From the NCBI GenBank assembly GCA_030649025.1, contig JAUSGO010000004.1:6824-70823 (forward strand): 64,000 nucleotides of DNA. The letters are read 5' to 3'. How positions within the stretch are numbered: position 1 is the stretch's first letter; the number at the start of each line of letters is the position of its first letter. Both the position numbers and the translations under genes were made by a program. Positions 1,177-60,262 of the stretch are shown piece after piece. Below the pieces are notes generated by a model. It was not told the origin of the DNA and ran no database searches. It worked only from the letters and a program-made list of their open reading frames with translations. Origin of the DNA: a bacterium. Lineage in GTDB: Bacteria > Patescibacteriota > Minisyncoccia > JAUYLV01.

Positions 1177-2571
1177 ATGACCAATGAAGATCTCTGGCAG
1201 ACCGTGTTGGGCGAAATGGAACTTACGCTTTCCAGGGCAAATTTCGTTACCTGGTTTAAAAACACTTCTATTTCTGCTCACGAAAGCGGCGCCGTGATCG
1301 TCAGCGTCCCGAACGGGTTCACACAAGAGTGGTTGGAGAATAAATATAACAAATTTATCCTTAAATCGTTGCGCAAAACATCTCCGGACGTTAAAGAGGT
1401 GAAGTATGTCATAGGCTCCTACAGTCCGCCTCCGCGCCGAGAACACCTTGATGTCTCCCCCGAGACTCAAATGGACAAGGAATCTTTTGCCTACGACGAC
1501 CAGCTTAGCGTCGGTGAACTTGAACAGCCGGTTCTGGTAAATAAAGCGAACCTCAATACCCGCTATACCTTTTCTTCGTTTATCGTTGGTTCTTCAAACG
1601 AATTGGCAAACGCAGCTTCCCTCGCCGTTGCAGGAAGCCCCGGTACGGTATACAACCCCCTACTTATCTATGGGGGAGTTGGGCTTGGAAAAACGCATCT
1701 TATGCAGGCGGTCGGAAACGAAATACTCGCAAAGCGCCCCGGAGCGCAAGTTAAGTACATAGCCGCGGAACGTTTTACGACGGAGCTTATCAATTCGCTC
1801 CAAGATAAGCGTATTGAAGAATTTAAACAGCGCTATCGGGCTTGCGATGTGCTTATTATCGACGATATCCAATTTCTTTCCGGAAAAGAAAAGACTCAGG
1901 AGGAGTTTTTTCATACCTTTAATCATCTTTTTGCCAACAATAAACAGATCATCCTTTCTTCCGACCGCCCTCCAAAAGCCATAGGAGGCATCGAGGAGCG
2001 ACTACGGAGCCGTTTTGAGGGCGGCATGGTCGCCGATGTTGGCATACCAGAGCTTGAGATGCGTGTTGCGATTCTAAAGAAAAAATCAGAAGAAAGAAAT
2101 ATTGCGCTTCCCGATGACGTGCTTATGTATATTTCTACGAAAATCCAGAAAAATATTAGAGAGCTCGAGGGAGCGCTTAATAAAATAGCCGCTTACGTAC
2201 AACACACCAAAACAGTTCCTTCTCTTAAAATAGCAGAGAAAATCCTCTCAAGCCTTATAAATCAGCCAAAACGGATGATTTTGGTACGGGATATTATGAA
2301 GGCTGTGTCGGATTTCTACGATATCGGCCTCGATGAAATTGTAAACCAGTGCCGGAGAAAAGAGGTGGTAAGACCGCGACAAATAACCATGTATCTTCTG
2401 CGCGAAGAGCTGCAAAGCTCTTATCCGGCCATTGGAGCCAAGCTCGGCAACAGAGATCATACGACCGTTATGTACGGCTGCGAAAAAATTACAAAAGAAC
2501 TGGAAAACAACCTTACGCTACAGGAAGAGGTCCGGCTCATTCGGGAGCGCCTGTATGCAAACATGGGATAG
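1177..2571 (+). CDS. dnaA: chromosomal replication initiator DnaA
   Basis: Walker A GVGLGKTHLMQAVGNE, Walker B/sensor LIIDDIQFLSGKEKTQEEFFHTFNHL, and a C-terminal DNA-binding domain. Confidence 0.97.
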   Translation: MTNEDLWQTVLGEMELTLSRANFVTWFKNTSISAHESGAVIVSVPNGFTQEWLENKYNKFILKSLRKTSPDVKEVKYVIGSYSPPPRREHLDVSPETQMDKESFAYDDQLSVGELEQPVLVNKANLNTRYTFSSFIVGSSNELANAASLAVAGSPGTVYNPLLIYGGVGLGKTHLMQAVGNEILAKRPGAQVKYIAAERFTTELINSLQDKRIEEFKQRYRACDVLIIDDIQFLSGKEKTQEEFFHTFNHLFANNKQIILSSDRPPKAIGGIEERLRSRFEGGMVADVGIPELEMRVAILKKKSEERNIALPDDVLMYISTKIQKNIRELEGALNKIAAYVQHTKTVPSLKIAEKILSSLINQPKRMILVRDIMKAVSDFYDIGLDEIVNQCRRKEVVRPRQITMYLLREELQSSYPAIGAKLGNRDHTTVMYGCEKITKELENNLTLQEEVRLIRERLYANMG

Positions 2572-2791
2572 AGTGTGTACAAAAAAAATAATTTTATTTT
2601 TCTCTTTTTTTGTTCACTGAAATATTCCGCTTATAGCCAGGCCCTCCACACCTTTATAAAATTCTTACAGTATATTTTTTGTATAAACAGCGATAAAAAA
2701 CTATTTTCCCCTTTTCCACAGCGCATAATAATAATCATTATAAATATTATATATAAAGAAATCTTATTATATATAATACCGGTGTATAACT
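2572..2791. promoter_or_regulatory. predicted oriC / DNA-unwinding element in the dnaA-dnaN spacer
   Basis: 220-nt spacer that is strongly AT-rich (ataataataatcattataaatattatatataaagaaatcttattatatataat), with a DnaA-box-like TTTTCCACA at about 2717-2725. Classical location for oriC. Confidence 0.45.
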
Positions 2792-3889
2792 ATGAAATTT
2801 TCCTGCATCAGATCATATTTTCTAAACGCGGCAAGCTCCGTTGAAAGAATAATAGAAAAAAATAGCACGCTTCCCATTCTTCAAAATATTTTTATTAAAG
2901 TTGAAAAAGGGAAGACCACACTTTCCACGACAAACCTTGAAATAGGCATACATGCTTCATTCCAATCAAAAGCGGACGAGGAAGGATCTTTTACCGTTCC
3001 TGCAAAAACCCTATTGAATTTTCTTATGTATGTGGATACAGAAAAGATAACAGTCCACACAAAAGGAACAAATCTTATTATAAATGCCGGCTCTCATAAG
3101 GCGGACATTAAAGGACTTGACGCAACTAATTTTCCTATCATTCCTGAAATAACCGAAAGCTTTTCTACTTCTCTGCCTGCAGAAGAATTTTTTTCAGCTC
3201 TTTCTTCCCTAACTTTTCTTTCTTCAATGGGAGACCTGCGGCCGGAGCTTGCGGGAGTTTTTTGCAGTTTTGAAAAAAACCAACTGCGCATGGCTGCAAC
3301 AGACAGTTTTCGTCTCGGAGAATTTATTTTAAAAATCCCTACCCCAAAGAAAGAAACGACCTGTATTATACCTACGCGAACCGTAAACGAAATAATCCGC
3401 TTATTCACCGGGGCCGAAGCCGTTACCTTAAAACTAAGTGCCAATCAAATTCTCATCAAAACACAGGAAAAAGAGCTCATCTCCCGCCTCATCGAAGAAA
3501 AATACCCCGATTATACGGCAGTTATTCCGACATCAAGCACAACCAGAACATATCTTAAAAGGGAAGAGTTTATGCAGGCCTTGCGCGCCGCAAGCGTTTT
3601 TAGCGGAAAGACGCGTGAGGTAAAAATTAATATTTTTCCGGAAGAAAAAAAATATATTATAGAAAGCCGCAATGCCGACATAGGAGAACACAAAAGCGAA
3701 ATTTCTTGCGACGGAAACGGAAAAAACGTGACGGTATCGGTTAACTATCAGTATTTCCTTGATGCCCTCGGGAAGATTTCCGACGAAATGATTTCTTTTG
3801 AGAACAACAACGAAACAGACCCCATTCTTCTTAAGGGGCTTGCGGGCGCCGGACCAAGATATATTATTATGCCGTTGCGCTCGTATTAG
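2792..3889 (+). CDS. dnaN: DNA polymerase III beta sliding clamp
   Basis: 365 aa immediately after dnaA. N-terminus MKFSCIRSYFLNAASSVERIIEKNSTLPILQNIFIKVEKG is typical of DnaN. Confidence 0.95.
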   Translation: MKFSCIRSYFLNAASSVERIIEKNSTLPILQNIFIKVEKGKTTLSTTNLEIGIHASFQSKADEEGSFTVPAKTLLNFLMYVDTEKITVHTKGTNLIINAGSHKADIKGLDATNFPIIPEITESFSTSLPAEEFFSALSSLTFLSSMGDLRPELAGVFCSFEKNQLRMAATDSFRLGEFILKIPTPKKETTCIIPTRTVNEIIRLFTGAEAVTLKLSANQILIKTQEKELISRLIEEKYPDYTAVIPTSSTTRTYLKREEFMQALRAASVFSGKTREVKINIFPEEKKYIIESRNADIGEHKSEISCDGNGKNVTVSVNYQYFLDALGKISDEMISFENNNETDPILLKGLAGAGPRYIIMPLRSY

Positions 3890-7884: not shown

Positions 7885-9990
7885 TTATTTTTTTCTTCCA
7901 TTAATGATTTCTTCGGCAACATTGCGTGGCACCTCCTCGTAACTGGAGAACTCCATTGTGTAGGAAGCTCTGCCCTCCGTCATGCTGCGGAGCTTTGTGG
8001 CATAGCCGAACATTTCTGCAAGTGGTACCGCCGCGTCAACAATTTTCAACTGGGCCCGCTGTCCCAGGTTTTCTATGCGCGCCCGCTTGCTGGATAGATC
8101 CCCGGTAACGTCTCCAAGGAATTTTTCTGGCGTTACGGCCTCTACTTTCATTACCGGCTCCAAAATAATGGGCTTTGCGCGTCTCACGCCTTCTTGTAAC
8201 GCCATGGATGCCGCAATTTTAAAAGCTATCTCGGAAGAGTCCACGTCGTGGTATGAGCCATCATAAAGAGTAACCCGCATGTCTTGCAACGGGTATCCGG
8301 CAACAACTCCCCGCTCCATAGCTTCCTTTACGCCTTTTTGCACCGCCGAGATGTACTCCTGCGGGATAACGCCCCCCCGAAGCTTGCTTTCAAATTCGAA
8401 TCCGGCTCCGCGTTCCAGGGCCTCGAGCCTCAGCCAGACGTGGCCGTACTGCCCATGTCCTCCCGTCTGCTTGATGTATTTTCCTTCGGCTTCAGCCGTC
8501 CCTTTGATGGTCTCTTTATATGCGACCTGTGGCGTACCGACGTTCGCTTCCACCTTAAATTCCCGCTTCATGCGATCAACAATGATCTCGAGGTGCAATT
8601 CGCCCATGCCGGAGATAATCGTGTCACCGGTTTCTTCATCTCCCTTGATGCGAAACGTCGGATCTTCGTCGGACAGGCGTTTTAACGCCAACCCCATTTT
8701 CTCCTGGTCGGCCTTCGTCTTTGGTTCAATTCGCTGGGAAATTACCGGTTCCGGAAAAATAATTTTTTCAAGTATGATGGGATTGTCCAGGTCGCAGAGC
8801 GTATCCCCGGTCGTAGTGCCCTTAAGCCCTACCGCGGCGGCAATGCCACCGGCCCAAACTTCTTTGATTTCTTCCCGGTGGTTTGCATGCATCTGCAAAA
8901 TGCGCCCGATGCGCTCTTTGTCACCGGTCCCTGCGTTATACACATAGGACCCGGCCTCTACCCTTCCAGAGTAGACCCGGAAGTAAGTGAGCGAGCCGAC
9001 AAACGGATCGGTGGCCACTTTAAATGCCAAGGCCGAAAACGGAGCCTGGTCGTCGGCAGAACGAACGAGATCTTCTCCCGTTCTTGGATGAGTTCCTGTA
9101 ACCGGGGGACGATCCAGGGGCGATGGTAAGTAATCCACCACCGCGTCAAGCATGAACTGTACGCCTTTATTTTTTAAGGCGGAGCCAACCAAAACAGGAA
9201 TAAGTGCGTTGTTAATGGTGGCCCTGCGAATAATTCGTTTTACTTCTTCGATAGGCGGCTCGACTCCGGCCAAATACTGCTCCATGGCCTTATCGTCCTT
9301 TTCCACAACTTTTTCAATAAGTTCATGGCGAAGTTCTTTGGCGCGTTCCTGCAGATCCGCCGGGACGACGCTTTCCACAATGCGCTCCCCGTGTTCCCCT
9401 TCAAACCGATATGCTTTCATGAGAAGCAGATCCACCACTCCTTCAAATCTATCTTCCTCGCCAATAGGAAGATGCATGCGTATGGCGTTCGGGGTCAGCC
9501 GTTCAAGAATAGAAGCGAAGCTTCGCTCAAAGCTCGCGCCCGCCCTATCGAGCTTGTTGATAAAGCAGATGCGCGGTACGTGGTATTCGTCCGCATAGTG
9601 CCAGTTGGTTTCGCTTTGAGGTTCCACTCCCGCAACGCCATCGAACACTACCACAGCCCCGTCCAGCACCCGCAGGGAGCGTTTTACTTCAACCGTAAAG
9701 TCGATATGTCCCGGCGTATCTATAAGGTTAATGCGATACTCGTGCGTCTTTTTGTCTTTGCCGTAGGGCGTCCAAAAACATGCAGTAGCCGCCGAAGTGA
9801 TGGTGATGCCGCGCTCCCGTTCCTGCTCCATCCAATCCATCACGGTATCGCCCTCGTGCACCTCGCCAATTTTATGCGAGATGCCGGTGTAAAACAAAAC
9901 ACGCTCGGAAACGGTGGTTTTTCCGGCGTCGATATGAGCAATGATGCCAATATCTCGTATACGCTCGAGAGGATAGTCTCTCATAAACAA
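7885..9990 (-). CDS. fusA: elongation factor G
   Basis: [23 protein letters not shown], 701 aa, downstream of rpsG in the str operon. Confidence 0.97.
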
Positions 9991-10095
9991 AAACTCGTTA
10001 TGTCGTTAACGAGTTGGCGAGCTCCCGCCTGAGGCGGATCCGCCTTTGGTGGAAATATGCCGATAGAATTGACCCGTTAACGCGTTAATGAAAAT

Positions 10096-10563
10096 TTACC
10101 AGGAGAAGTGTGCAAATGCCTTGTTCGCTTCCGCCATCCGGTGAGTGTCCGCCTTTTTCTTTATCGCGTATCCCGTGTTATTGGCCGCATCGATAAGCTC
10201 TTCCGCAAGCTTTTGCGCCATAGGCTTGCCCTTCCGGGTCCTTGCCCCGTTAATAAGCCATTTGCACGCCAAAAACATTTTCCGTTCTCCCCGCACTTCA
10301 CGCGGAACCTGATAGTTCGCGCCGCCCACGCGTCTGGATTTAAGTTCAAGCTGCGGCGTAGCGTTTTTTATGGCGGCGTCAAAGGCTTCAAGGGGATCCT
10401 TTTTTGTTTTTTCGCCCATGCGGACCAGCGCCGTATACATAATTCGCTCCGCAGTGGATTTCTTGCCCCGCTCCATAAGGTAATTAATAAATTTTGCGAC
10501 GACGGCGCTCGCGTACTTTGCGTCCGGCTGAATGGTTGTTTTTAGTTTTCGTTTACGCCTCAT
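10096..10563 (-). CDS. rpsG: 30S ribosomal protein S7
   Basis: 155 aa, S7 consensus throughout. Confidence 0.95.
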   Translation of the reverse strand: MRRKRKLKTTIQPDAKYASAVVAKFINYLMERGKKSTAERIMYTALVRMGEKTKKDPLEAFDAAIKNATPQLELKSRRVGGANYQVPREVRGERKMFLACKWLINGARTRKGKPMAQKLAEELIDAANNTGYAIKKKADTHRMAEANKAFAHFSW

Positions 10564-10581
10564 ACTCTATGATTTATTATC

Positions 10582-11001
10582 TTATTTTTTATCCTGCGGC
10601 CGTTTCACGCCATATTTGCTTCGTTCTTGTTTTCTATTTTCCACTCCTCCCGCATCCAAAACTCCCCGCACAATGTGATAGCGCACGCCGGGAAGATCTT
10701 TGACGCGTCCACCACGAATAACCACCACCGAATGTTCCTGTAAGTTATGCCCGATACCGGGAATGTAGGCCGTAACTTCCATGCCGTTCGTAAGCCGCAC
10801 GCGGGCGATTTTGCGTAGGGCGGAATTCGGTTTTTTAGGGGTCATGGTTTTTACACTGATGCACACGCCGCGCTTGAAGGGCGAACTATAAAGTTTCGGC
10901 CTGTTTTTAAGCACGTTAAACCCGCGGGTCAGCACGGGGCTTTTTGATTTTACTTTTTGCGACTTTCGGGGACTCTTAATAAGCTGGTGGATTGTAGGCA
11001 T
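10582..11001 (-). CDS. rpsL: 30S ribosomal protein S12
   Basis: Start at [13 protein letters not shown] (internal Met of the track ORF), then ...[19 protein letters not shown]. Confidence 0.95.
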
Positions 11002-11188
11002 GATGTTAGAAAAGATAGCACACGACCAATCTAAAGACAAGCGAAAGCGTAACAAGGTCTCTTCGCGCTGTCAAATAAAAACTTTTGAATAAAAAACAAT
11101 CCTTGACAATCGTGGCTAATTTGTTAGTCTAATTTCTTCCGGTTCATTGAAATTTAAGAACAAGTTCACAAAGAAGGGGGCGCTTATT

Positions 11189-13572: not shown

Positions 13573-15552
13573 ATGACGAAAGACCAATTTGACTGGATGC
13601 CGACCAAAACGCATCTGCAAGATTCGCGCATCGGGAGCTTTATGCAGAAACACGGTATCGCAGACTTCAGGAAGCTTATAGAAAAATCGAATGCCGATGT
13701 ATCTTGGTTCTGGACCGCCGCACTGGAAGATCTCGGATTCGAGTGGCATACGCCGTATCATGCGCTTTTTGACGACTCGCTGGGAATGCCGTGGGTAAAG
13801 TGGTTTTTGGGCGGGAGGCTCAACATCGTCCATCACTGTCTGGACCGCCATCTTCGCGACGGAAAATCCAAAAAAGATGCTCTTGTCTGGGAGGGAGAGG
13901 ATGGTCTGATCCGCAAAATCACATATGGAGAACTCGCGCATTTGGTAGAAAAAATTTCTGCGGCTATGACGAGCGTCGGGGTGGCGAAGGGTGATGTTGT
14001 TGCAATGTGCATGGACCTCACCATTGAAGCGGTTGCTGTCATGTTCGCCTCCTTTAAAATAGGCGCAACGTGCCTTCAGACCGGAACGTGGCACGCGCCC
14101 GCGGAGCTTGCCGAAACTTTGCGTCGCGGTGCTCCAAAGATGCTATTTATTCACGAAAGTTTGCGTCGCGGAGGAGAAGAAAAAAGTCTGCAGGCGGCGA
14201 TTGAATCCATAGGATCCGACAGTACGTTGCCCGTAACCGTCGTAGTTGTGCCAAGGATTGGCGCAAGCAAGGAAGAACGAGAAAGCGTTTCAGGTCCTTC
14301 CGGCGGGCGTATAAATAAATTTGGAATTCTGCTGGCGTCCGCAGAGAATAAGCCCGCTGTTAAAACACTGGCACTTGACGCGGAGACGCCGTCGCTCATC
14401 CTTTTTTCTTCCGGCACGACCGGGCGCCCCAAGGCCATTGTCCATACTCACGGAGGAGCACTCGCACAGGTTGTAAAGGAGGTGGGATACGCTTTTGACT
14501 GCCGCGAAAACGACGTTTTCTGCTGGACGACAAATCTTGGATGGATGATGGCGCCATGGGAAATAATCGGAACGATGTTCTTTGGCGCTACGCTGGTCCT
14601 TATCGAAGGATCTTGCGCGTACCCGACGCCGCACCGAATCTTTGAAATCATCCAGCGGCAGCGCATCTCCATCTTAGGCACAACGCCCGGCCACCTTCAG
14701 AAACTGCGGGACTGCTCCGAGCAGTACGGTCGGCATGATCTTTCGAGCCTTAGGATCCTTGGCTCCACTGGAAAAGTTCTTGACGCAGAACTTTGGAGCT
14801 GGTTCTTCACGACATTTGGAGACAAGAAGCTTCCCATCGTCAATATATTCGGCGGCACCGAGGTGCTTGGATGCCTTGGGTCCGCTCTTCCCATTATGCC
14901 CCTTAAGGCAGGAACGGTCGGGATGGCGGCTCTTGGAACTGGTTCAGACGTTTGTGATGATGGAGGAAATTCTGTCCGCGGACAGGCGGGAGATGTGGTT
15001 TGCCGCTCCCCTATTCCTTCCATGACCAGGAGCTTTTTCGGAGATCCTCAGGGATATTTAGATGCCTATTTCTCTCATGGGACGCATCTTTGGTGGCATG
15101 GCGACCGGGCGATCATTGACGAGGATGGTCTCTGGTTCCATCTCGGGAGATCGGATGATCTTATTATAAGGGATGGGGTGAAACATGATCCGGTAAAAAT
15201 TGAGAGCGCGCTCAAGGCATTTCCCGGACCACCGCGTATTCGGGACGTCGCCGCGATAAGCACGACCGACAAGAACGGTCACGACCGCATCGTTTGTTTC
15301 GTCGTAATAGACGGGGCATTCGTGGAAAATGTGAAGGAATTTTTGCACGATGTGCGGGCCCACACGAAAATAACCTATGGAGCGCTCGGACAGCCCGATG
15401 AGGTTTATGTCGTCAGAGAGCTTCCGGTGAACCAGGCAAACAAGGTGCCGCACAAGGCATTACGGCTTATGCTTGAAGGAAAGGATGTGGGCGAAGTAGC
15501 GCTACAGAATCCTTGGGCACTTGAAGAAATACGCAGGGCGCTGAATTGTTAA
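13573..15552 (+). CDS. AMP-forming acyl-CoA (acetyl-CoA-like) synthetase
   Basis: Start MTKDQF after the SD ggaggg. WFLGGRLNIVHHCLDRHL, AMP-binding motif ILFSSGTTGRPKAIVHTHGG, 659 aa. Confidence 0.85.
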   Translation: MTKDQFDWMPTKTHLQDSRIGSFMQKHGIADFRKLIEKSNADVSWFWTAALEDLGFEWHTPYHALFDDSLGMPWVKWFLGGRLNIVHHCLDRHLRDGKSKKDALVWEGEDGLIRKITYGELAHLVEKISAAMTSVGVAKGDVVAMCMDLTIEAVAVMFASFKIGATCLQTGTWHAPAELAETLRRGAPKMLFIHESLRRGGEEKSLQAAIESIGSDSTLPVTVVVVPRIGASKEERESVSGPSGGRINKFGILLASAENKPAVKTLALDAETPSLILFSSGTTGRPKAIVHTHGGALAQVVKEVGYAFDCRENDVFCWTTNLGWMMAPWEIIGTMFFGATLVLIEGSCAYPTPHRIFEIIQRQRISILGTTPGHLQKLRDCSEQYGRHDLSSLRILGSTGKVLDAELWSWFFTTFGDKKLPIVNIFGGTEVLGCLGSALPIMPLKAGTVGMAALGTGSDVCDDGGNSVRGQAGDVVCRSPIPSMTRSFFGDPQGYLDAYFSHGTHLWWHGDRAIIDEDGLWFHLGRSDDLIIRDGVKHDPVKIESALKAFPGPPRIRDVAAISTTDKNGHDRIVCFVVIDGAFVENVKEFLHDVRAHTKITYGALGQPDEVYVVRELPVNQANKVPHKALRLMLEGKDVGEVALQNPWALEEIRRALNC

Positions 15553-16487: not shown

Positions 16488-16541
16488 CAATAAATTGTTC
16501 CATGTGAAACGTTAGTGTGTTTTTCTATGAAACAGGGCCAC

Positions 16542-16559
16542 ATGTTTCATGGGAAACAT
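16542..16559. promoter_or_regulatory. palindromic operator-like site ATGTTTC-atgg-GAAACAT immediately upstream of the yraN start
   Basis: Perfect inverted repeat. The same 16-mer form TGTTTCATGRGAAACA recurs at 16986-17001. Confidence 0.5.
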
Positions 16560-16568
16560 TTTTTAATC

Positions 16569-16985: not shown

Positions 16986-17001
16986 TGTTTCATGAGAAAC
17001 A
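16986..17001. promoter_or_regulatory. second copy of the TGTTTC-N4-GAAACA palindrome, just downstream of yraN
   Basis: TGTTTCATGAGAAACA, perfect inverted repeat. Confidence 0.5.
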
Positions 17002-17009
17002 TTTTTATA

Positions 17010-17043
17010 ATTCCACGTGAAACATTAATGTTTCACGTGGAAT
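17010..17043. repeat. 34-bp perfect palindrome ATTCCACGTGAAACATT|AATGTTTCACGTGGAAT
   Basis: Exact self-complementarity. It carries the same GAAACA/TGTTTC half-sites in the opposite arrangement. Confidence 0.8.
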
Positions 17044-17103
17044 AGATGTTTGCGAACAAATTACTTATTTGATAGCATGATGCTGAAGTAAAATTTAATA
17101 CTT

Positions 17104-17174
17104 GCGGGTATCGTATACCGGTATTATGCCACCTTGCCAAGGTGGAGAAACGGGTTCAATTCCCGTTACCCGCT
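17104..17174 (+). tRNA. tRNA-Gly (anticodon GCC), no encoded CCA
   Basis: Manual fold: acceptor GCGGGTA/TACCCGC, anticodon stem CCACC/GGTGG with loop ttGCCaa, T-stem ACGGG/CCCGT with loop TTCAATT. D-stem is weak (3 pairs) but the D-loop contains GG. Confidence 0.7.
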
Positions 17175-17292
17175 CACCAAAATAAAACTGCCCCTTGTGA
17201 GTAGTTTTATTTTGGTCGAACTTGGGGAATTAAAGGGAGGTCCGGTGGACTTCCCAGGTTTTTCTGAGCCGGAGGAACGAGGAGAGGAAAAG

Positions 17293-19321: not shown

Positions 19322-19355
19322 ATGCCACCTTGCCAAGGTGGAGAAACGGGTTCAA
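19322..19355. repeat. 34-bp exact copy of the tRNA-Gly anticodon-arm-to-T-loop segment (ATGCCACCTTGCCAAGGTGGAGAAACGGGTTCAAT)
   Basis: Identical to 17128-17161 inside the tRNA-Gly. It ends exactly at the T-loop, where the fragment at 17293 begins. Confidence 0.85.
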
Positions 19356-19435
19356 TAAAATGTTCGTAGGCGACGACTGCTTGACTTTGAGATAAATCTT
19401 GCTAGGATAAGGATGACTTTACGGAGGCAAGAAAG

Positions 19436-25655: not shown

Positions 25656-26759
25656 TCAGAATTGTGTGATGATGAGCACCCAGTCGTTCACGTACTCGTC
25701 ACGCAGTGTTCCGTTGGCGTCCTTTGTGGCACGGATAGCAAACACCTTCCAGGTGTTCTTAATGTGTTCCATGAGTAGGCGGTTGAATGTTTCGTCTCCC
25801 GGACTTGAGAAGATGTGCGTGTCTTCAATGTTGCCGCCCAGTGAGACCTTCAGAGCAAAATACATCGTTTTCCCTCGAAATTTTCGAATAGCTCTGTTTA
25901 GCTCCCGGTTTTGTGTATCGGCCGGAGGATCAGGACGGCTGAAAACAAAAGCTCTTGTGTCGCTTCTGCCTCTTCCGAAACCCGCGCCGATGCCGCCGCC
26001 CTCTCCACCGCCCGTCCCGCCGCCGCTGCCGGGGCCGTAACCGCCGCCGCTGCCGGGGCCTATGCCCGTCCCAGTGCCCGCGCCGATACCACCCGCAGAT
26101 CCCTCGCCATCGGAAGTGGGATTGGGTATGGGGGCCATGGCATCTCCCACAGTATCGGGAAGTGCGGGAATGGGAATTTGTGATGCGTCAATTGAGCCCT
26201 GCAAAGAAGGAGGTTCGGGAATATCCGGATCTATATTCGGCGATGCAACGGAAGGCACGACAATCTGCGCCCGCTTAATGTCGGGAAGTTTTCCGGCAGA
26301 GGGCGGCTTGGGAGAATTTTTCCCTCCGCCTCCGCCGCCTCCGCCAATATCCGTCGAATCCATTTTTGGCATGTAAAGCAGGATGTACGGCGGACGGGTT
26401 TCGGCAACCATCGGTCTTTTTTGGGTCTTGCGGCCCATGAGCATCGCCAAGAGCACGACAATGGTTATGGTCATCGGATAGACCAAGCAAGTCGTTGCAA
26501 GCTGCGCTACCCATCTGTGACGGTTTTCTTTTTCTACCTGGACGACAAGATTTGTCGTCGGTTCGCAAATGCCCAGCGTGATAATGCAGGTGTTTCGATG
26601 TATATTCGTGTTTTCAAGTAGCCGCTCGACACTTCTCAAGGAAGCACGATCGGCTAAGTTTCGCATTATTTTGAGAAACACCGATGCGCCCTCCTTGTGA
26701 GATTGATGTGGATGTCGCATATCGTAGCACCATAACCGGCTATTGACAAGTTTTTCCAT
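25656..26759 (-). CDS. membrane-anchored Gly/Pro-rich protein with a TonB-C-like C-terminal domain (hypothetical)
   Basis: TM segment LVYPMTITIVVLLAMLMG, poly-Gly and Pro-rich low-complexity tracts, and a C-terminal ~90 aa loosely TonB-C-like. Start uncertain. Confidence 0.45.
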   Translation of the reverse strand: MEKLVNSRLWCYDMRHPHQSHKEGASVFLKIMRNLADRASLRSVERLLENTNIHRNTCIITLGICEPTTNLVVQVEKENRHRWVAQLATTCLVYPMTITIVVLLAMLMGRKTQKRPMVAETRPPYILLYMPKMDSTDIGGGGGGGGKNSPKPPSAGKLPDIKRAQIVVPSVASPNIDPDIPEPPSLQGSIDASQIPIPALPDTVGDAMAPIPNPTSDGEGSAGGIGAGTGTGIGPGSGGGYGPGSGGGTGGGEGGGIGAGFGRGRSDTRAFVFSRPDPPADTQNRELNRAIRKFRGKTMYFALKVSLGGNIEDTHIFSSPGDETFNRLLMEHIKNTWKVFAIRATKDANGTLRDEYVNDWVLIITQF

Positions 26760-26821
26760 ATAGCTATACTAGAAGGGTACAAGCCGCCTTAATAAAGGGT
26801 GGTTTTTTGATTAAGAAATTT

Positions 26822-26930
26822 AAAAATCAAAGATCAAAAATCAAAATTAAGGAGTGAAAATTTTTCTTCAAAAAACTTTCACGATACTCCAAAATTTTGC
26901 ATTTTGAGATTTGCATTTTGAATTTTACTA
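26822..26930. repeat. ~110-nt intergenic repeat element, copy A (before nusA)
   Basis: About 85% identical to 50869-50995. Contains ATCAAAA tandems, AAGGAG, a hairpin GTGAAA..TTTCAC and TTTTGCATTTTGAG x2. Confidence 0.85.
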
Positions 26931-26932: not shown

Positions 26933-28306
26933 GTGGATCAAAAACAATTTCTTTCGGCGCTTACGCAGATATCCGAAGAAAAGGGCATATCGCGGGAACG
27001 CGTTATTGAAACAATAGAAATGGCTGTCGCCGCGGCCTATAAGCGCGAATATGGCCGCAGAGGACAGATCGTGCGGGCAAAAATGGATCCCGAAACGGGC
27101 GTGATGTCATTCACGCAGGTGAAGTTGATTGTGGAACCCTCAATGCTAAAAACAGAGGAAGAGATTGCCCAGGAGGAAAAAGAAGCGACGGAACGCATTG
27201 CCGCGGCTGCGACGGCAACGCCGGAGGAAAAAAGACTTCAAAAGAAGCGGGAAATGGAGGCCGAAGAACTACTCGAGAAAATTCCCGAATCGGAAGAGGA
27301 GAAAAAAATAAGATTCAATCCCGAGAAGCACATTCTTCTGGAAGATGCCCGGAAAGAAAATAAGGATATTCAGGTCGGCGAAGAGTTTATTACTTCGCTC
27401 GAGACGCATTCGGATTTCGGGCGCATTGCGGCCCAGACCGCAAAACAGGTTATTATCCAGCGCATCCGCGAAGCCGAACGAGATGCGATATTTGCCGAGT
27501 ATAAGGGAAAGGAATGGGAACTGGTGAGCGGTATTGTGCAGCGCATTGAAGGACAGAGTGTTTTTGTGGACCTTGGCAAAACCATCGCAACGCTTTTCCC
27601 CGAGGATCAGCTGCCCACGGAAAACTATCGCATAGGCCAGCGCTTGAGATTCCTGCTCATCAGGGTTGAAATGACGCCCAGAGGCCCCTTGGTACTGCTT
27701 TCCCGGTCGCATCCCATGGTGCTTCGCAAGCTCTTCGCCCTGGAAGTTCCCGAAATAGCCGCAGGAACCGTGGAGATCAAGTCTATAGCGCGCGAAGGCG
27801 GCTCACGAACAAAGGTGGCGGTGGCGTCAAAAGAAGAAGGCATTGATCCCATCGGTTCCTGCGTCGGACAGCGCGGCACGAGAGTGCAGACGGTCATTAA
27901 CGAGATCGGCGGAGAAAAAATAGATATCGTCGAGTGGTCCGAGAATCCGGAAGTGTTCGTTGCCCACGCGCTTTCCCCCGCAAAAGTTCTCGATGTAACG
28001 CTCTTTCCGGACGAGCGCAAGGCGATAGTGGAGGTGCCGCCGGACCAGCTTTCGCTTGCCATCGGGCAGAAAGGACAAAACGTGCGGCTTGCCGCAAAAC
28101 TAACCGGCTGGAAAATAGATATCAAAGGCGCGGAATTACCGGCGGAGGCAAGCGTTGAAGAAGACGTCGCGACAGAAGGCGACGCCCAAGAGGCCACGCT
28201 CTCTGAGCCCGAGACAGAAACGCCCGCTTCGCAAAGCGCTTCTTCGGCAAGCGAAGAAATTCAGCCAGCCGCGGAAGAGAAGGTAACAGATGCGGCAAAG
28301 GAATAA
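26933..28306 (+). CDS. nusA: transcription termination/antitermination factor NusA with an acidic C-terminal tail
   Basis: S1, KH and acidic domains; ...ISEEKGISRERVIETIEMAVAAAYKRE. GTG start chosen because the preceding 36 nt belong to the non-coding repeat; the track ORF starts at 26897. Confidence 0.9.
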   Translation: MDQKQFLSALTQISEEKGISRERVIETIEMAVAAAYKREYGRRGQIVRAKMDPETGVMSFTQVKLIVEPSMLKTEEEIAQEEKEATERIAAAATATPEEKRLQKKREMEAEELLEKIPESEEEKKIRFNPEKHILLEDARKENKDIQVGEEFITSLETHSDFGRIAAQTAKQVIIQRIREAERDAIFAEYKGKEWELVSGIVQRIEGQSVFVDLGKTIATLFPEDQLPTENYRIGQRLRFLLIRVEMTPRGPLVLLSRSHPMVLRKLFALEVPEIAAGTVEIKSIAREGGSRTKVAVASKEEGIDPIGSCVGQRGTRVQTVINEIGGEKIDIVEWSENPEVFVAHALSPAKVLDVTLFPDERKAIVEVPPDQLSLAIGQKGQNVRLAAKLTGWKIDIKGAELPAEASVEEDVATEGDAQEATLSEPETETPASQSASSASEEIQPAAEEKVTDAAKE

Positions 28307-40385: not shown

Positions 40386-40476
40386 TAGATAGTAATTGTG
40401 AGGTATTTATAAATATTGGCATATTTTAGGCAAAAACAGTAAACAAATAACAAAAAGCAAATAACAAGATCATCCC

Positions 40477-40504
40477 GCTATTTGCTATCTGCTATTTGCT
40501 ATTT
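40477..40504 (+). repeat. 4x heptamer tandem repeat (GCTATTT/GCTATCT/GCTATTT/GCTATTT) 12 nt upstream of the tuf ATG
   Basis: Direct reading. Related array TGCTATT/TGCCATC/TGCTGTT/TGCTATC before rplO. Confidence 0.8.
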
Positions 40505-40516
40505 ACTGAAATCGTT

Positions 40517-42327: not shown

Positions 42328-42930
42328 ATGAAATGTTTACTTGCTCAGAAACTTGGCATGTCGCAGATCTATACGGACGCTGGCATCGTTATGCCCGTCA
42401 CCGTTGTTTCTGTTGCGCCGAATACGGTCATACGGGTCCGTTCAAACGATGCACGCGGCTATGATGCGGTGCAAGTTGGCGCGGGATCCAGAAAAAAACT
42501 CACAAAACCGATGGCCGGGCAATTTAAAGAACTCGGAAAATTTAAATGGGTGAAGGAATTCAGAACAAGGGCAGGAGATCTGAAGCGTGGCGACATTATA
42601 GGTATTTCGGTATTTACCGAGGGAGACGTAGTGGATGTTACCTCGACGAGCAAGGGGAAGGGGTTTGCGGGCGTGGTGAAGCGGCATCATTTTCGCGGAG
42701 GACCGGCGTCGCACGGCCATCCACACAATCACCGCGCTCCGGGATCCATCGGATGCCGTTTTCCGCAACATGTGCACAAAGGAAAGCGCATGGCGGGTCA
42801 CATGGGCTTTGAAACCGTGACGGTAAAAAATCTAAAAGTGGTGCGGATCAATGAGGAACAGGGTCTTATGGCTATAAAGGGAGCGATACCGGGAAGCAGG
42901 GGGACGCTGGTGAAGATCATGGGAAGATGA
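42328..42930 (+). CDS. rplC: 50S ribosomal protein L3
   Basis: MKCLLAQKLGMSQIY...GKGFAGVVKRHHFRGGPASHG. Confidence 0.93.
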   Translation: MKCLLAQKLGMSQIYTDAGIVMPVTVVSVAPNTVIRVRSNDARGYDAVQVGAGSRKKLTKPMAGQFKELGKFKWVKEFRTRAGDLKRGDIIGISVFTEGDVVDVTSTSKGKGFAGVVKRHHFRGGPASHGHPHNHRAPGSIGCRFPQHVHKGKRMAGHMGFETVTVKNLKVVRINEEQGLMAIKGAIPGSRGTLVKIMGR

Positions 42931-42987
42931 ATTATGCTTAATTACGGATTACGCATTACGAATTAATTCGCAATACGCAATTCGCAA

Positions 42988-43632
42988 TTGAGTGATTCAG
43001 CAATGCAGGCAAAACTCTACAACCAAGACGGAAAAGAAGCCGGGACAACCGAATTGCCCGATGCGATATTTAATGTTCCGCAAAACTCCGCACTGGTAAA
43101 GCAGGTTGTCGAGGTGGAGCGGGCTAATAGACGAAAACCCCTTGCCCACACCAAGGTACGCAGCGAGGTGCGCGGCGGAGGCAAAAAACCGTGGAAGCAG
43201 AAGGGCACGGGAAGGGCGCGTCATGGCTCAATTCGTTCGCCGCTGTGGAAGGGAGGCGGAACAACTTTCGGGCCGCGGAACGAGACAGTTTTTAAAAAGC
43301 ACATCAATAAAAAAATGAGACGAAAGGCTCTTTTTATTGTACTTTCGGCAAAAGTAAAGGACGGGGAATGCGTTTTTATTGATCGGATACAGCTCAACGA
43401 GTCCAAGACAAAGGCGTTTTCTAAAATCATAAAAAATTTTAAAGAAACATTGGGCAGGTCGCTTGCATTTGTAAGTTCGGGTGATGCCGTGCTTGAACGG
43501 GCCGCGCGCAATATTGAAAAACTTTCCGTATACCAAGCCTCTCAGCTCAATGCGCTCGATTTGTTACAAAAGAAGTTTCTCTTTATACCGAAGTCAGCAA
43601 TCGAAGTTATTGAAAAAACTTTTTTGAAATAA
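42988..43632 (+). CDS. rplD: 50S ribosomal protein L4
   Basis: ...RGGGKKPWKQKGTGRARHGSIRSPLWKGGG. Confidence 0.93.
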   Translation: MSDSAMQAKLYNQDGKEAGTTELPDAIFNVPQNSALVKQVVEVERANRRKPLAHTKVRSEVRGGGKKPWKQKGTGRARHGSIRSPLWKGGGTTFGPRNETVFKKHINKKMRRKALFIVLSAKVKDGECVFIDRIQLNESKTKAFSKIIKNFKETLGRSLAFVSSGDAVLERAARNIEKLSVYQASQLNALDLLQKKFLFIPKSAIEVIEKTFLK

Positions 43633-43636: not shown

Positions 43637-44053
43637 ATGTCCATCGTACAAACTTTAAAAAAGAAAATTGTTCGCAAGGAAACCGGGAAAGAAGAAGCTC
43701 CTTCCTCCGCTTCCGCGACCCCGGGCCATATGAACGAAGCGGATCGGATAGGAGAGTCCGTCCAAGAAAAGAAGGGGCAAGCCACGGCCGTTTTAAGAAA
43801 GCCGCGTGTCACGGAAAAAACTGCGGAGCTTGGCATCGAGCGCATCTATACGTTCGACGTAGATCCTAAGGCTTCAAAACATGAAGTGCGCCTGGCAGTG
43901 GAAAAAATGTACGGCGTCAATGCCGTAAGCGTGCGCACCATTACCGTGCATCGCAAAAAACGGACGCGTGGGAAACTTGAGGGATGGAAGAAGGGATATA
44001 AAAAGGCACTGGTGAAAATAAAAGAAGGACAAACAATAGAGATTTCAAGCTGA
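43637..44053 (+). CDS. rplW: 50S ribosomal protein L23 with an N-terminal extension
   Basis: VLRKPRVTEKTAELGIERIYTFDVDPKASKHEVRLAVEKMYGV. Confidence 0.9.
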   Translation: MSIVQTLKKKIVRKETGKEEAPSSASATPGHMNEADRIGESVQEKKGQATAVLRKPRVTEKTAELGIERIYTFDVDPKASKHEVRLAVEKMYGVNAVSVRTITVHRKKRTRGKLEGWKKGYKKALVKIKEGQTIEISS

Positions 44054-44092
44054 TTAGCTTATTAGCTTCTTAGGGAATTCAAAAAAAAGTCC

Positions 44093-44124
44093 TAAAAAGC
44101 TAAAAAGCTAAAAAGCTAAAAAGC
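44093..44124 (+). repeat. 4x octamer tandem repeat TAAAAAGC ending 1 nt before the rplB GTG start
   Basis: Direct reading: cc-taaaaagc x4 - t - GTG. Confidence 0.85.
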
Positions 44125-44125
44125 T

Positions 44126-44956: not shown

Positions 44957-44964
44957 ATTATTCA

Positions 44965-44987
44965 GTTAACGCATTTGCGCGTTAACG
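44965..44987. promoter_or_regulatory. 23-nt hairpin motif GTTAACGCATTTGCGCGTTAACG (8-bp inverted repeat GTTAACGC/GCGTTAAC) preceding the 4x octamer array before rpsS
   Basis: A near-identical motif GTTAACGAATTTGCGAGTTAACG occurs at 54041-54063 before map. Confidence 0.6.
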
Positions 44988-45000
44988 GGTTCCGTAAAAA

Positions 45001-45032
45001 CTCGTTAACTCGTTAACTCGTTAACTCGTTAA
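45001..45032 (+). repeat. 4x octamer tandem repeat CTCGTTAA ending 2 nt before the rpsS GTG start
   Basis: Direct reading. Confidence 0.85.
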
Positions 45033-45034
45033 CG

Positions 45035-45376: not shown

Positions 45377-45466
45377 AGATCAGCTTATAGGTTATAGCTG
45401 CTAACTTGTAGGGATGAAGAAAGAACGAGTTAAGCTCAAAAAGCTATAAGCTCTAAGTCATAAGGT

Positions 45467-46686: not shown

Positions 46687-46745
46687 GTTATAGCTGATAG
46701 GTTTTAGCTTGTAGAGTTTTGAGGGATGCGCATACCCTCACTCGA

Positions 46746-46773
46746 AGCTATAAGCTATAAGCTATAAGCTATA
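46746..46773 (+). repeat. 4x heptamer tandem repeat AGCTATA ending 2 nt before the rplP ATG
   Basis: Direct reading: g-aagctata x4 - ac - ATG. Confidence 0.85.
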
Positions 46774-46775
46774 AC

Positions 46776-47523: not shown

Positions 47524-47604
47524 CAAGACTTGTAGCCTCTTAACTTCTTAGCTTCTTGGGCGGATTCCTAAAAAGCTGAAAGTTAAAAGCTGGAAGTTGT
47601 TTGA

Positions 47605-49616: not shown

Positions 49617-49860
49617 GGGCTTTGTCTGCGTTTCGGAGCGCCTTTGTCGCGAACGAAACGCAGGAACAAAACCTTACCCCCTCACTCATCCCGGCAAGAC
49701 ATTCTCGATGTATGTAGCTGGAAAGGCGAAGCCGCCTTCGGCTCTCGGCCCTATATATCGAAAAGCTCTCGTAAGGATGAGTGAGGGGGTGCTCACTGTT
49801 GTAGCTAAAAATCATTCGCTCAACATTGGGTCTCGCTCATAATTTTTAGACAACATTGGC
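49617..49860 (+). other. 244-nt structured spacer between rpsH and rplF, with a 15-bp perfect inverted repeat (49677-49691 / 49775-49789) and additional hairpins; candidate cis-regulatory RNA or ncRNA
   Basis: CCCCCTCACTCATCC ... GGATGAGTGAGGGGG enclosing 83 nt. A 10-bp hairpin CTGCGTTTCG/CGAAACGCAG lies just after the rpsH stop. CAACATTGG is repeated twice before the rplF ATG. Confidence 0.45.
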
Positions 49861-50409: not shown

Positions 50410-50494
50410 AGCCTTTAGCCGATTAGCCCACTAGTTTCCTAGGAATAATAACCTAGTTGATCTAATAGGCTCATAGGCTAGTAAGCTAAACACC

Positions 50495-50872
50495 TTGAGG
50501 AAGAATCGTGCAAAACACAATATACTCATGCGTACGCGCAGGCATGGGCGCATTCGCGGCAAAATACAGGGGACCGCGGATCGGCCAAGGCTCTCCGTGT
50601 TCCGTTCCGCAAAACATCTCGCCCTTCAACTTATAGATGATGAGGCTCAAAGAACGATTGTTGGGATTACCGACGAGAAGAAAACTAAAAAAATAAACAA
50701 GGGCTCTGGGGCGGCAAAAGTTGAAAAGGCGAGGGCGGCCGGCAAAGTGCTGGCGGAAAAGGCTTTGGCAAAGGGGATTAAAAAAGTGGTATTTGATAGA
50801 GGCGGTTATGCGTATCATGGAAGGGTTCGGGCGGTTGCGGAGGGCGCAAGAGAAGGAGGACTTCAGTTTTGA
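50495..50872 (+). CDS. rplR: 50S ribosomal protein L18
   Basis: L18 consensus; 125 aa. Confidence 0.93.
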
Positions 50873-50995
50873 AAATCAAAAGTCAAAAATCAAAAGTCAA
50901 AAATCAAAATTAAGGAGCGAAAGTTTCTCTTGCAAGAAAAACTTTCACGATATTCCCAAGTTTTGCATTTTGAGTTTTGCATTTTGAATTTGTAA
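50869..50995. repeat. ~125-nt intergenic repeat element, copy B (between rplR and rpsE)
   Basis: About 85% identical to 26822-26930; starts at the rplR stop and ends at the rpsE ATG. Confidence 0.85.
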
Positions 50996-50996
50996 A

Positions 50997-51488
50997 ATGG
51001 CCAGACAACAACATCGGCAAGAAAAACAAAAAGGCGAGTTTGAACAAAAAACACTCGAAGTCAGCCGCGTGACACGCGTCGTTGAAGGCGGAAAGCGTTT
51101 TTCTTTTCGCGCTGCGCTGGTTATCGGCGATCTCAGGGGGCGCGTAGCTTTGGGTGTCGCAAAGGGCGCCGACGTCTCGCTTGCCATTGAGAAGGCGGCA
51201 TTCCGCGCGAAGAAAGATCTTTTTTCCGTTCCGCTCACGAAGGAGGGGTCTATTTCTCATGAGGTGCGTGCGAAATACGGCAGCGCCAAGGTCTTGTTAA
51301 AGCCGGCGGCAGAGGGCCGCGGTATTGTGGCTGGTGGCGCCATGCGCACGGTATGCGCGCTTTCGGGAATTCGACATGTAACCGGGAAAATACTTAATTC
51401 TACAAACAAGATAAACATTGCGCGGGCCACCATTGCGGCGCTCAGACAACTTAGACCGTCAAAAGAGCAAACAACAAAAAACAAATAA
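50997..51488 (+). CDS. rpsE: 30S ribosomal protein S5
   Basis: ...VTRVVEGGKRFSFRAALVIGDLRGRVALGVAKGADV. Confidence 0.95.
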   Translation: MARQQHRQEKQKGEFEQKTLEVSRVTRVVEGGKRFSFRAALVIGDLRGRVALGVAKGADVSLAIEKAAFRAKKDLFSVPLTKEGSISHEVRAKYGSAKVLLKPAAEGRGIVAGGAMRTVCALSGIRHVTGKILNSTNKINIARATIAALRQLRPSKEQTTKNK

Positions 51489-51503
51489 CAGGCTTCAGCC
51501 GCT

Positions 51504-51531
51504 TGCTATTTGCCATCTGCTGTTTGCTATC
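51504..51531 (+). repeat. 4x heptamer tandem array TGCTATT/TGCCATC/TGCTGTT/TGCTATC ending 5 nt (CGTTA) before the rplO ATG
   Basis: Direct reading; same family as the array before tuf. There is no L30 gene between rpsE and rplO. Confidence 0.8.
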
Positions 51532-51536
51532 CGTTA

Positions 51537-51971: not shown

Positions 51972-52021
51972 TATTAAGAATTTGTATGTTAAAATAGGCT
52001 GGCATATCAGCGACCGCTCTC

Positions 52022-54037: not shown

Positions 54038-54040
54038 TCG

Positions 54041-54063
54041 GTTAACGAATTTGCGAGTTAACG
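54041..54063. promoter_or_regulatory. second copy of the 23-nt GTTAACG hairpin motif (GTTAACGAATTTGCGAGTTAACG), preceding the 4x octamer array before map
   Basis: 21/23 identity to 44965-44987. Confidence 0.6.
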
Positions 54064-54072
54064 CGTTATTTT

Positions 54073-54104
54073 AACCCGTCAACCCGTCAACCCGTCAACC
54101 CGTT
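54073..54104 (+). repeat. 4x octamer tandem repeat AACCCGTC (last unit AACCCGTT) ending 5 nt before the map GTG start
   Basis: Direct reading. Same octamer family AAC(T/C)CGT(T/C) as the array before rpsS. Confidence 0.85.
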
Positions 54105-54109
54105 AATGG

Positions 54110-55759: not shown

Positions 55760-55835
55760 TTTTCAATGAATCAATTTTCAAAGCGTCCTCCAAAATTTTT
55801 ATTTGAAAATTAAAAATTGAAAATTAAGAATTGTC

Positions 55836-60256: not shown

Positions 60257-60262
60257 GTTGAT

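Follow-up and report, generated by a model that had tools for sequence, protein, structure and literature searches.

Predicted periodic hairpin repeats upstream of nusA and rpsE and within the translation gene cluster of a Patescibacteria-like bacterium

Two homologous elements upstream of nusA and rpsE

The window analyzed here (64,000 nt; contig JAUSGO010000004.1, positions 6,824 to 70,823 of the forward strand) carries two copies of a repeat element, one (copy A) in the 5' untranslated region (UTR) of nusA and the other (copy B) between the ribosomal protein genes rplR (L18) and rpsE (S5). A first-pass annotation of this DNA had described two copies of about 85% identity near these genes. 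This was borne out by blastn, which gave 87.6% identity over 113 nt (26816-26925 versus 50879-50991; E = 1e-29), and the mean column identity in a wider frame aligned with MAFFT was 84%. The tandem repeats, the AAGGAG motif, the hairpin and the repeated 3' motif reported for the element were each recovered in both copies. Each copy had further been said to end exactly at a start codon, which needs correction, as the homology stops 5-7 nt short of the GTG of nusA (26933) and the ATG of rpsE (50997). A similarity of low-complexity A/T sequence only had been named as a possible refutation. The likeness goes beyond this, because the unique, non-repetitive inner core of 57 nt (AAGGAG, inner hairpin and ACGATAYTCC) matches by itself, with 84% identity and E = 2e-8. 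A third copy was found neither in the 64-kb window nor in any locus of the relatives compared. Since A and B lie 24 kb apart, identity at this level points to copying rather than convergence, and on the sequence comparison they are two members of one family of dispersed, insertion-type repeat.

The 5' array of each copy (AAAATCA/AAAAGTC) is the reverse complement of its 3' array (TTTTGAG/TTTTGCA) bar 1-2 positions per unit. Because the arms are mutually complementary, each copy is predicted to form a single hairpin of about 115 nt, which is interrupted every 7 nt by an internal loop (1x1 or 2x2) between helices of 4-7 bp and whose tip consists of AAGGAG and an inner hairpin of 10 bp. The consensus fold of A and B comprises 35 pairs, none of which is broken in either copy, and three one-sided substitutions still pair via G.U. 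The z score for copy B ranged from -2.5 to -6.2, varying with frame and shuffle, and the minus strands of both copies folded at least as well as the plus strands (-31.3 kcal/mol for A and -41.4 kcal/mol for B). In Logan, an independently assembled sequence of this organism agrees at 100% with window positions 50963-61488; it begins within the 3' arm of copy B, so that this assembly broke at the repeat. What the first-pass annotation overlooked is that A and B fold as long hairpins and that the window holds no fewer than a dozen elements of this kind. We consider it fairly probable that A and B represent one family of a dispersed, insertion-type periodic hairpin repeat that is spread by copying and folds out of the mRNA of translation operons. 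Among the options originally offered for the two copies, a miniature mobile element is the best fit.

The other options fared less well, and it is extremely improbable that the copies constitute a small RNA gene in its own right or act as an internal promoter or as a leader-peptide attenuator. Both copies do contain AAGGAG, and copy B has a 20-codon open reading frame (ORF; TTG...TAA) that ends 2 nt before the rpsE ATG as well as a promoter-like sequence overlapping this ATG (TTGAGT-17-TAAAAT). However, copy A has TTC in place of the TTG with which the small ORF opens, the distance from AAGGAG to the real starts is 80 nt, and copy A lacks the promoter-like match, the only one detected in copy B. 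The covariance-model check proposed for the element was run and matched no family: in a search of the window against Rfam, only two tRNAs reached the gathering threshold, and permissive searches of the elements returned generic microRNA-type hairpins (E >= 0.03), far below threshold; for A and B themselves, no match went beyond E = 0.29. Neither within A or B nor directly after the element was a plus-strand match to an intrinsic terminator or attenuator obtained. The only plus-strand terminator-like match near the copies is a separate hairpin (26781-26805), and the inner hairpin of copy B scores on the minus strand only.

Two further candidates were rejected. A leader peptide or a coupling ORF of the MIRU type is contradicted by the small ORF, which the copies do not share (TTG in B, TTC in A), and in the other hairpin families described below the 7-nt periodicity puts stops in every frame. 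A bridged Shine-Dalgarno sequence in the style of T4 gene 38 would have to act from AAGGAG. This motif is 80 nt away, a distance that folding of the inner hairpin reduces to no less than about 50 nt, and in the fold it pairs with AYUCC.

Start codon and leader of nusA

In five relatives, NusA begins with M(x)DQKQF(L/V)SA, colinear with VDQKQFLSA at 26933, which places the start of nusA at the GTG at this position; the in-frame codons upstream of it are repeat sequence. The earlier proposal that the first 36 nt of the annotated ORF are non-coding was therefore correct. Existing calls extend nusA into the repeat, with a start at TTG 26897 in the ORF scan and at TTG 26918 as implied by the NCBI protein of 462 aa.

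The nusA leaders of six genomes (the window and relatives designated by L numbers) were compared. In five of the six, a long periodic hairpin ends within about 10 nt of the start, drawn from three families: AAAATCA in the window, TAAATCC in L056 and L059, and AACAAAT in L057 and L058. In L061 (76%), the leader measures just 25 nt and lacks such a hairpin. The 3' arm of copy A weakly resembles its orthologs in L056 and L059 (25 of 32 positions identical, z 4-6), so that A is perhaps a resident element of the nusA leader. Judged by this sequence likeness, copy A may thus be the resident element and copy B may have been copied from it.

Upstream of copy A, a promoter is followed by a small hairpin with a U-run, an arrangement that resembles a leader terminator or attenuator. 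The stems of this small hairpin covary among the leaders (CCGCC/GGTGG, CCACC/GGTGG, CCCTCA/TGAGGG, CCATTCTT/AAGGATGG and CCATCC/GGATGG), and it possibly serves in the autoregulation of NusA.

Hairpins at other junctions of the window

Arrays with a period of 7 or 8 nt were detected by Tandem Repeats Finder (TRF), and overlapping arrays were merged before counting. The 16 merged arrays of the window are confined to two places, the leader of nusA and the interval from 40.4 to 55.9 kb, which corresponds to the tuf - S10 - spc - secY - adk - map - GT2 - galT cluster. Of these arrays, 14 fall within the 16 kb of the cluster (8.8 per 10 kb), and the other two, both in copy A, are all that positions 1-40000 contain (0.5 per 10 kb). 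At least 12 spacers of the window fold as periodic hairpins, with z scores from -2.5 to -7. Paired arrays fill the L3-L4, L23-L2, L2-S19, S19-L22, S3-L16, S17-L14, L6-L18, L18-S5, S5-L15, adk-map and GT2-galT spacers and are also found in the 5' UTR of tuf (Table 1). At least eight different repeat units are used, and each array has a complementary partner. The tract before galT that had been listed as a weaker relative of A and B proved to be a real hairpin of the same architecture, belonging to another sequence family. The minus-strand element between rpsG and fusA aligns in both directions, slightly better in the chromosomal orientation; its family is too palindromic to be oriented. The remaining structured spacers of the window are ordinary GC-rich terminators.

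Table 1. Coordinates of the elements and associated features in the window, and occupancy of the L18-S5 junction in relatives. MFE, minimum free energy.
Feature	Position	Strand	Details
Copy A, whole periodic hairpin, nusA 5' UTR	26815..26926	+	MFE -28.3 kcal/mol, z -4.0; 87.6% identical to copy B
Copy A, 5' arm	26822..26846	+	AAAAATC (AAAATCA-type) heptamer array, 3.6 units; TRF; pairs with 3' arm
Copy A, core	26849..26882	+	AAGGAG at 26849-26854; inner hairpin GTGAAAATTT...AAACTTTCAC at 26854-26882; AAGGA pairs with UCC in the fold
Copy A, 3' arm	26893..26926	+	TTTTGCA/TTTTGAG (TTTTGCATTTTGAG-type) heptamer array; TRF period 7 and 14
nusA start codon GTG	26933..26935	+	N-termini of NusA from five relatives align here
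nusA promoter, sigma-70-like	26743..26770	+	TTGACA-16-TATACT; 11/12 consensus match; conserved in L056-L059 and L061
Small leader hairpin and T-run	26781..26809	+	Upstream of copy A, outside the repeat; terminator-like match; present in 6/6 nusA leaders
Copy B, whole periodic hairpin	50877..50992	+	Fills rplR-rpsE spacer; MFE -31 to -32 kcal/mol; homology to A at 50879-50991
Copy B, 5' arm	50872..50909	+	AAAATCA/AAAAGTC array, 5.4 units; TRF period 7; period 14 at 100% match
Copy B, core	50912..50948	+	AAGGAG at 50912-50917; inner hairpin at 50917-50948; from sequence and folds
Copy B, 3' arm	50959..50991	+	TTTTGCATTTTGAG array; TRF
rplR (L18) stop TGA	50870..50872	+	Within TTTTGAAAA, left edge of copy B; ORF 50495-50872; ...QF* C-terminus kept in relatives
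rpsE start ATG	50997..50999	+	S5 proteins of relatives begin with MARQQHRQEKQK
Element in tuf 5' UTR	40437..40508	+	AACAAAT / GCTATTT arms; TRF and fold; AACAAAT family also before nusA in L057 and L058
Element in L3-L4 spacer	42928..42999	+	AATTACG / AATTCGC arms; TRF and fold
Element in L23-L2 spacer	44042..44125	+	AGCTTATT / CTAAAAAG arms; TRF, fold and family alignment
Element in L2-S19 spacer	44964..45033	+	GTTAACG.. / AACTCGTT arms; TRF and fold
Element in S19-L22 spacer	45383..45458	+	AGCTTAT-type; fold
Element in S3-L16 spacer	46687..46775	+	AAGCTAT-unit arms and inner GC hairpin; fills spacer exactly; z -6.2 to -7.3
Element in S17-L14 spacer	47527..47598	+	AGCTTCTT / AAAAGCT arms; fold and family alignment
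Element in L6-L18 spacer	50410..50487	+	z -3.4
Element at S5-L15 junction	51466..51528	+	AACAAAT family; 5' arm overlaps S5 C-terminal codons; fold
Element in adk-map spacer	54040..54105	+	GTTAACG.. / AACCCGTC arms; TRF; folds weakly sense, strongly antisense
Element before galT	55760..55823	+	TTTTCAA / TTGAAAA arms; fold; TTTTCAA family also in L002 adk-map spacer
Related hairpin in rpsG-fusA spacer	9985..10095	-	GTTAAC family; fold and alignment
L18-S5 junction, L016 (S5 83%)			Hairpin, AGCTTAT arms and inner hairpin
L18-S5 junction, L002 (S5 68%)			Hairpin, AGCTTCTT/ACAAGCT arms
L18-S5 junction, L003 (S5 61%)			Hairpin, ACACGAAT-type arms
L18-S5 junction, L014 (S5 78%, fully syntenic)			Empty, 16-nt spacer
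L18-S5 junction, L060 (S5 81%)			Empty, 13-nt spacer

At several hairpins, the 5' arms are translated as low-complexity C-terminal tails, e.g. S5 ...QTSSQIQNPNIQ and ...KFQTPSPKQAPNPNDQNSKPQET (window 51455-51488; P0002, P0004, P0010, P0012), and 3' arms are absorbed into mis-called N-termini, e.g. LLLLFADCYLL... in P0012. A second kind of insertion occupies the S8-L6 spacer of the window (49617-49860), which contains a GC-rich palindrome (49676-49790) with 38-nt arms that are 79% complementary; the fold of the whole spacer reaches a z score of -8.9. The L15-secY and map-GT2 spacers of L002 carry two copies of another GC-rich palindrome of about 180 nt in opposite orientations, and a hairpin with perfect 23-bp terminal inverted repeats follows S5 in L060.

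Occurrence of the hairpins in relatives

The S5 and NusA proteins of the window share 55-62% identity with those of Moran-, Uhr-, Sung- and Parcubacteria, which makes this uncultured organism one of the Patescibacteria/CPR type. In relatives at 60-83% protein identity, the corresponding junctions hold elements of the same architecture that are made up of other repeat units. The A/B sequence family was not found in any relative examined. Absence from close relatives had been named beforehand as a refuting outcome, and it argues against a conserved functional RNA. The suggestion of a leader element accordingly fails for a conserved leader and stands as part of a combined reading as a miniature mobile and leader element. 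The same gene order with spacers of 16 nt (L014) and 13 nt (L060) confirms the view that copy B splits a normally contiguous rplR-rpsE pair, and because relatives have such empty sites, the element is probably dispensable.

In L002 and L003, hairpins of this kind occupy most of the ribosomal protein gene junctions. The density of period-7/8 arrays per 10 kb is 9.0 in L002, 4.4 in L003, 0.5 in L014 and 0-1 in ten other lineages, a patchy distribution of the kind that repeat expansions typically show. No such hairpins are present where non-translation genes of the relatives adjoin (topA, tpi, pgk). The three element-rich genomes share 4-5 occupied junctions versus about 4.6 by chance, as in random colonization. 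The A/B family belongs to a lineage-specific class of periodic hairpins with 7- or 8-nt units and several sequence families, which is present in this Patescibacteria-like organism and some of its relatives, both in 5' UTRs (nusA, tuf) and in the stop-start spacers of the translation cluster. In L003, a run of ATCAAAA-type heptamers is located within the coding region of map (methionine aminopeptidase; 13618-13644), apparently as an in-frame insert.

One of these families, AGCTT, has nine members distributed over different junctions of the window, L002 and L016, which share a loop and have the consensus TTAGCTTCTTAGCTTCTTAGG-loop-CCTAAAAAGCTAMAAGCT. In their alignment, 90.5% of the cells are paired, and four pairs show compensatory double changes; three members, for instance, have G-C in place of A-U. 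Covariation scored 0.28 versus 0.18 in shuffles, with 1 of 500 shuffles as high, and controls with slid partners paired in 30-64% of cells. The dispersal of the family combined with its retained pairing indicates that whole elements have been copied between sites and that the hairpin is under constraint.

The shared cores and loops also bear on the idea that the hairpins are a local mutational by-product, generated in situ by slippage and template switching with neither transfer between sites nor function. Units of 7-8 nt fall into the size class given as the most expansion-prone in prokaryotes (Mrazek 2007, as cited in PMC4679880), the unit counts of the 5' arms differ between A (3.6) and B (5.4), and the periodic mismatches resemble those expected among copies of one founding unit. 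By contrast, A and B have their unique core in common, and the AGCTT loops recur in members at different junctions and in different genomes. Because unique cores are shared, a local origin is largely refuted as the sole cause and, as a full account of the hairpins, highly improbable; slippage is likely to be the source of the variation in arm length.

Geometry of the hairpins and possible consequences for translation

Filled spacers (29) have a median length of 81 nt, of which the unpaired flanks outside the main stem make up a median total of 9 nt (interquartile range 7-12), and 31 element-free spacers of the same operons have a median length of 10 nt. The stems begin a median of about 3 nt past the stop codon and finish about 6 nt ahead of the start codon, such that the base of the stem pairs the nucleotides right after the stop with those right before the start. 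In these folding models, a folded insertion would restore the normal stop-to-start distance. A recognizable Shine-Dalgarno sequence within <=15 nt of the start is present in about 5 of the 64 genes of the window. The genes served by hairpins have none, as is true of most window genes, and initiation in this organism seems to depend on such sequences to a small extent only.

If A and B are copy-spread insertions, new sites would receive copies of whole elements, either through ectopic conversion or through transposition of the REP/REPIN or MITE type, and the arms would lengthen or shorten through replication slippage of the 7-8-nt units. Each element would be co-transcribed with its operon and, by folding back, would be looped out of the mRNA, leaving about 9 unpaired nucleotides between stop and start. 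With the spacer folded to its ordinary length, translational coupling would survive the insertion in these Shine-Dalgarno-poor operons. Since the base of the stem joins the post-stop and pre-start nucleotides, a ribosome that terminates there would open the stem and thereby free the start codon that follows. In addition, the hairpin would probably serve as an exonuclease barrier, and it is for translational coupling and mRNA stability that we infer roles of these elements.

A stronger proposal, which we rate as rather unlikely, is that the hairpins are a lineage-specific translation device that ties a stop codon to the next start, being unzipped or shunted by the ribosome, which then re-initiates, and that they have arisen by domestication of a self-spreading module. 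In this case, coupling would hold the synthesis of ribosomal proteins to a 1:1 ratio, the stems could additionally mark processing sites from which near-leaderless cistrons arise, and the tandem 7-8-nt units would provide a stem length tunable by slippage. Hairpins that do more than stay clear of translation would represent a new solution to initiation and coupling where Shine-Dalgarno sequences are little used.

Alternatively, the hairpins may be selected cis-acting mRNA elements that function in strict coupling or as RNase III-type processing sites or exonuclease barriers of translation operons that are highly expressed and poor in Shine-Dalgarno sequences, with a sequence that is free to drift or be replaced. 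This explanation is possible, if doubtful. It agrees with the confinement to the nusA and tuf leaders and the ribosomal protein gene cluster, the filling of the nusA leader by three families in five of six genomes, the placement of the stem edges relative to stop and start codons, the compensatory changes and the sense-strand G.U bias in the AGCTT family, the lack of Shine-Dalgarno sequences at the genes served, and the weak likeness of the copy A 3' arm to its orthologs in L056 and L059. However, the sites of L014, L060 and L061 are empty with their operons intact, and L014 is almost array-free even though its S5 is closer to that of the window than the S5 of L002. Moreover, the joint occupancy of junctions is not above chance, many elements fold better antisense, and the near-identity of A and B over a distance of 24 kb requires copying. 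Empty sites, patchy spread in close relatives and chance-level sharing of junctions likewise speak against an essential function.

Several observations count against the favored reading of A and B as a copy-spread repeat. Only two copies of the family are known, within 64 kb of genome, and a metagenome scan with the core 18-mer AAACTTTCACGATAYTCC returned 39 matches, none with any likeness in the flanks and all due to chance. No transposase or RAYT gene (Y1_Tnp) was detected among 30 non-ribosomal ORFs of the window, a set drawn from outside 58.9-62.7 kb and without some of the hypothetical proteins. A clear target-site duplication is lacking; the TTTTGA that flanks A and B on both sides equals the repeat unit, and the AGCTT-family members show no flanking duplication. 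An element that is purely selfish or neutral would not be expected to keep to translation operons, where the enrichment hints at function or transcription-linked targeting. Some hairpin is present in 5/6 nusA leaders and 4/6 L18-S5 junctions, and this frequent occupancy could reflect selection for a hairpin at those sites. Finally, the antisense strand folds slightly better in a comparison of 37 elements (24 versus 13, p = 0.04), whereas the AGCTT family has the opposite wobble bias (9 G.U versus 2 A.C on the sense strand), so that the pairing strand is ambiguous; as the strand results conflict between families, they are compatible with a constraint at either the RNA or the DNA level.

Comparison with known repeats

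A full-text literature search yielded no published description of these hairpins. By comparison, they appear closest to REP/REPIN/MITE elements and to the start-proximal heptamer repeats of Beggiatoaceae and cyanobacteria. REP/REPIN (BIME) sequences of Proteobacteria are short, dispersed, extragenic imperfect palindromes whose inverted halves form a hairpin of about 100 nt. They are often located within operons and co-transcribed, occur in several families per genome, vary in presence or absence at orthologous sites and cause no target-site duplication; each genome contains tens to hundreds of near-identical copies and a cognate RAYT (Y1 transposase) gene flanked by repeats. The elements described here are likewise hairpin-forming imperfect palindromes, all located between genes or in 5' UTRs, with folds on both strands. 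In contrast to REP/REPIN sequences, their arms are tandem 7-8-nt arrays with periodic internal loops, they are positioned directly 5' of start codons (including in 5' UTRs) and concentrated in translation operons, and no RAYT was seen among 30 window ORFs scanned. The 64 kb of genome covered contains two copies of the A/B family.

Pneumococcal BOX and RUP, Neisseria Correia and enterobacterial ERIC elements are hairpin-forming, co-transcribed sequences of 100-150 nt that can alter mRNA stability; the MITE-like BOX elements are modular, with a variable number of internal 45-nt subunits (boxB). Size, hairpin formation and variable subunit number are shared by the elements studied here, whereas their subunits measure 7-8 rather than 45 nt and no parent insertion sequence is known. 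As regards the hallmarks of MITEs, the arms are inverted, and TTTTGA flanks both copies but equals the repeat unit. At the RNA level, an analogy may be drawn to stabilizer or processing hairpins, such as the RNase III sites of the phage T7 early region, the malE-malF REP sequence and the RNase III sites of the Escherichia coli metY-nusA-infB leader, which are also long, imperfect hairpins with internal loops in intercistronic regions or the nusA leader. Those structures are unique and conserved, with cleavage or stabilization demonstrated, whereas the present elements are repeated, variable and dispensable. Mycobacterial MIRU elements are direct repeats of 46-101 bp in operon spacers whose small ORFs overlap the neighboring stop and start codons, thereby preserving coupling. 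The hairpins resemble them as intercistronic insertions that would preserve coupling, but would do so by folding and contain no conserved ORF.

In Beggiatoaceae, cyanobacteria and Bacteroidetes, direct repeats of the heptamer TAACTGA precede start codons, including at junctions of ribosomal protein operons (MacGregor 2015, PMC4679880). Each genome has one dominant heptamer with no predicted structure, and ribosome-binding sites are rare (PMC4679880). Nostoc PCC 7120 contains heptamer repeats such as (TTTTGAA)3 (bioRxiv 10.1101/2022.06.06.494920), a unit nearly the same as that of the A/B 3' arm. As in these systems, in which TAACTGA-type repeats have 2-6 copies, the present arrays consist of 7-nt tandem units that end a few nucleotides before starts lacking a Shine-Dalgarno sequence; unlike them, they comprise many unit families, each array being paired with a complementary array into a hairpin.

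This parallel invites the view, already proposed for the TAACTGA repeats of Beggiatoaceae and the Nostoc heptamers, that the arrays rather than the hairpin are functional, being bound ahead of start codons by the ribosome or by a protein that recognizes RNA (S1, Csp, CsrA-like), which we consider very unlikely. Consistent with it, the 3' arms contain 3-5 near-perfect 7/8-nt units and end 0-15 nt before Shine-Dalgarno-less starts, and there is a published precedent for such repeats in ribosomal protein operons (PMC4679880) and upstream of starts in Nostoc (bioRxiv 10.1101/2022.06.06.494920). Yet TAACTGA arrays are structure-less whereas each array here is matched by a complementary one, and no single sequence-specific binder would fit because at least eight unrelated units occur in one genome. 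TIGR arrays, which have units of about 36 nt with two variable spacers and box C/D motifs, adjoin a Nop-domain Tas gene and are also found in Candidate Phyla Radiation (CPR) bacteria (PMC12045711), were considered and dismissed, as the units here have 7-8 nt without spacers and their neighbors are ribosomal genes.

The hairpins thus link the unexplained start-proximal heptamer repeats of Beggiatoaceae and cyanobacteria to hairpin repeats of the REP/REPIN type. They show that a 16-kb ribosomal protein gene cluster tolerates a dozen self-folding insertions of 70-125 nt between essential and presumably coupled genes, and the hairpin-filled spacers amount to a natural experiment on permissible intercistronic content. 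For the annotation of Patescibacteria/CPR-type genomes, they matter in that starts are mis-called into repeats, C-terminal tails run into 5' arms and assemblies break.

Additional features of the window

The window opens with dnaA-dnaN (1177-3889) and therefore adjoins the replication origin. The str operon (rpsL-rpsG-fusA, 7885-11055) is located on the strand opposite to the S10/spc cluster. Within tRNA-Gly(GCC) (17104-17175), the inner 35 nt (17126-17160) are repeated exactly at 19322-19356, 2.2 kb downstream. The two repeats bracket genes for a nudix protein, a hypothetical protein and a chagasin-like inhibitor, with no integrase between them, and the duplication looks like an att-type one derived from an integrated element. 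The palindromic motif TGTTTCATGNGAAACA is present at 16496-16516, 16543-16563 and 16986-17006, around a UPF0102 gene and two tRNA genes, and a perfect 15-bp hairpin (CCACGTGAAACA...TGTTTCACGTGG) is located at about 17010-17045.

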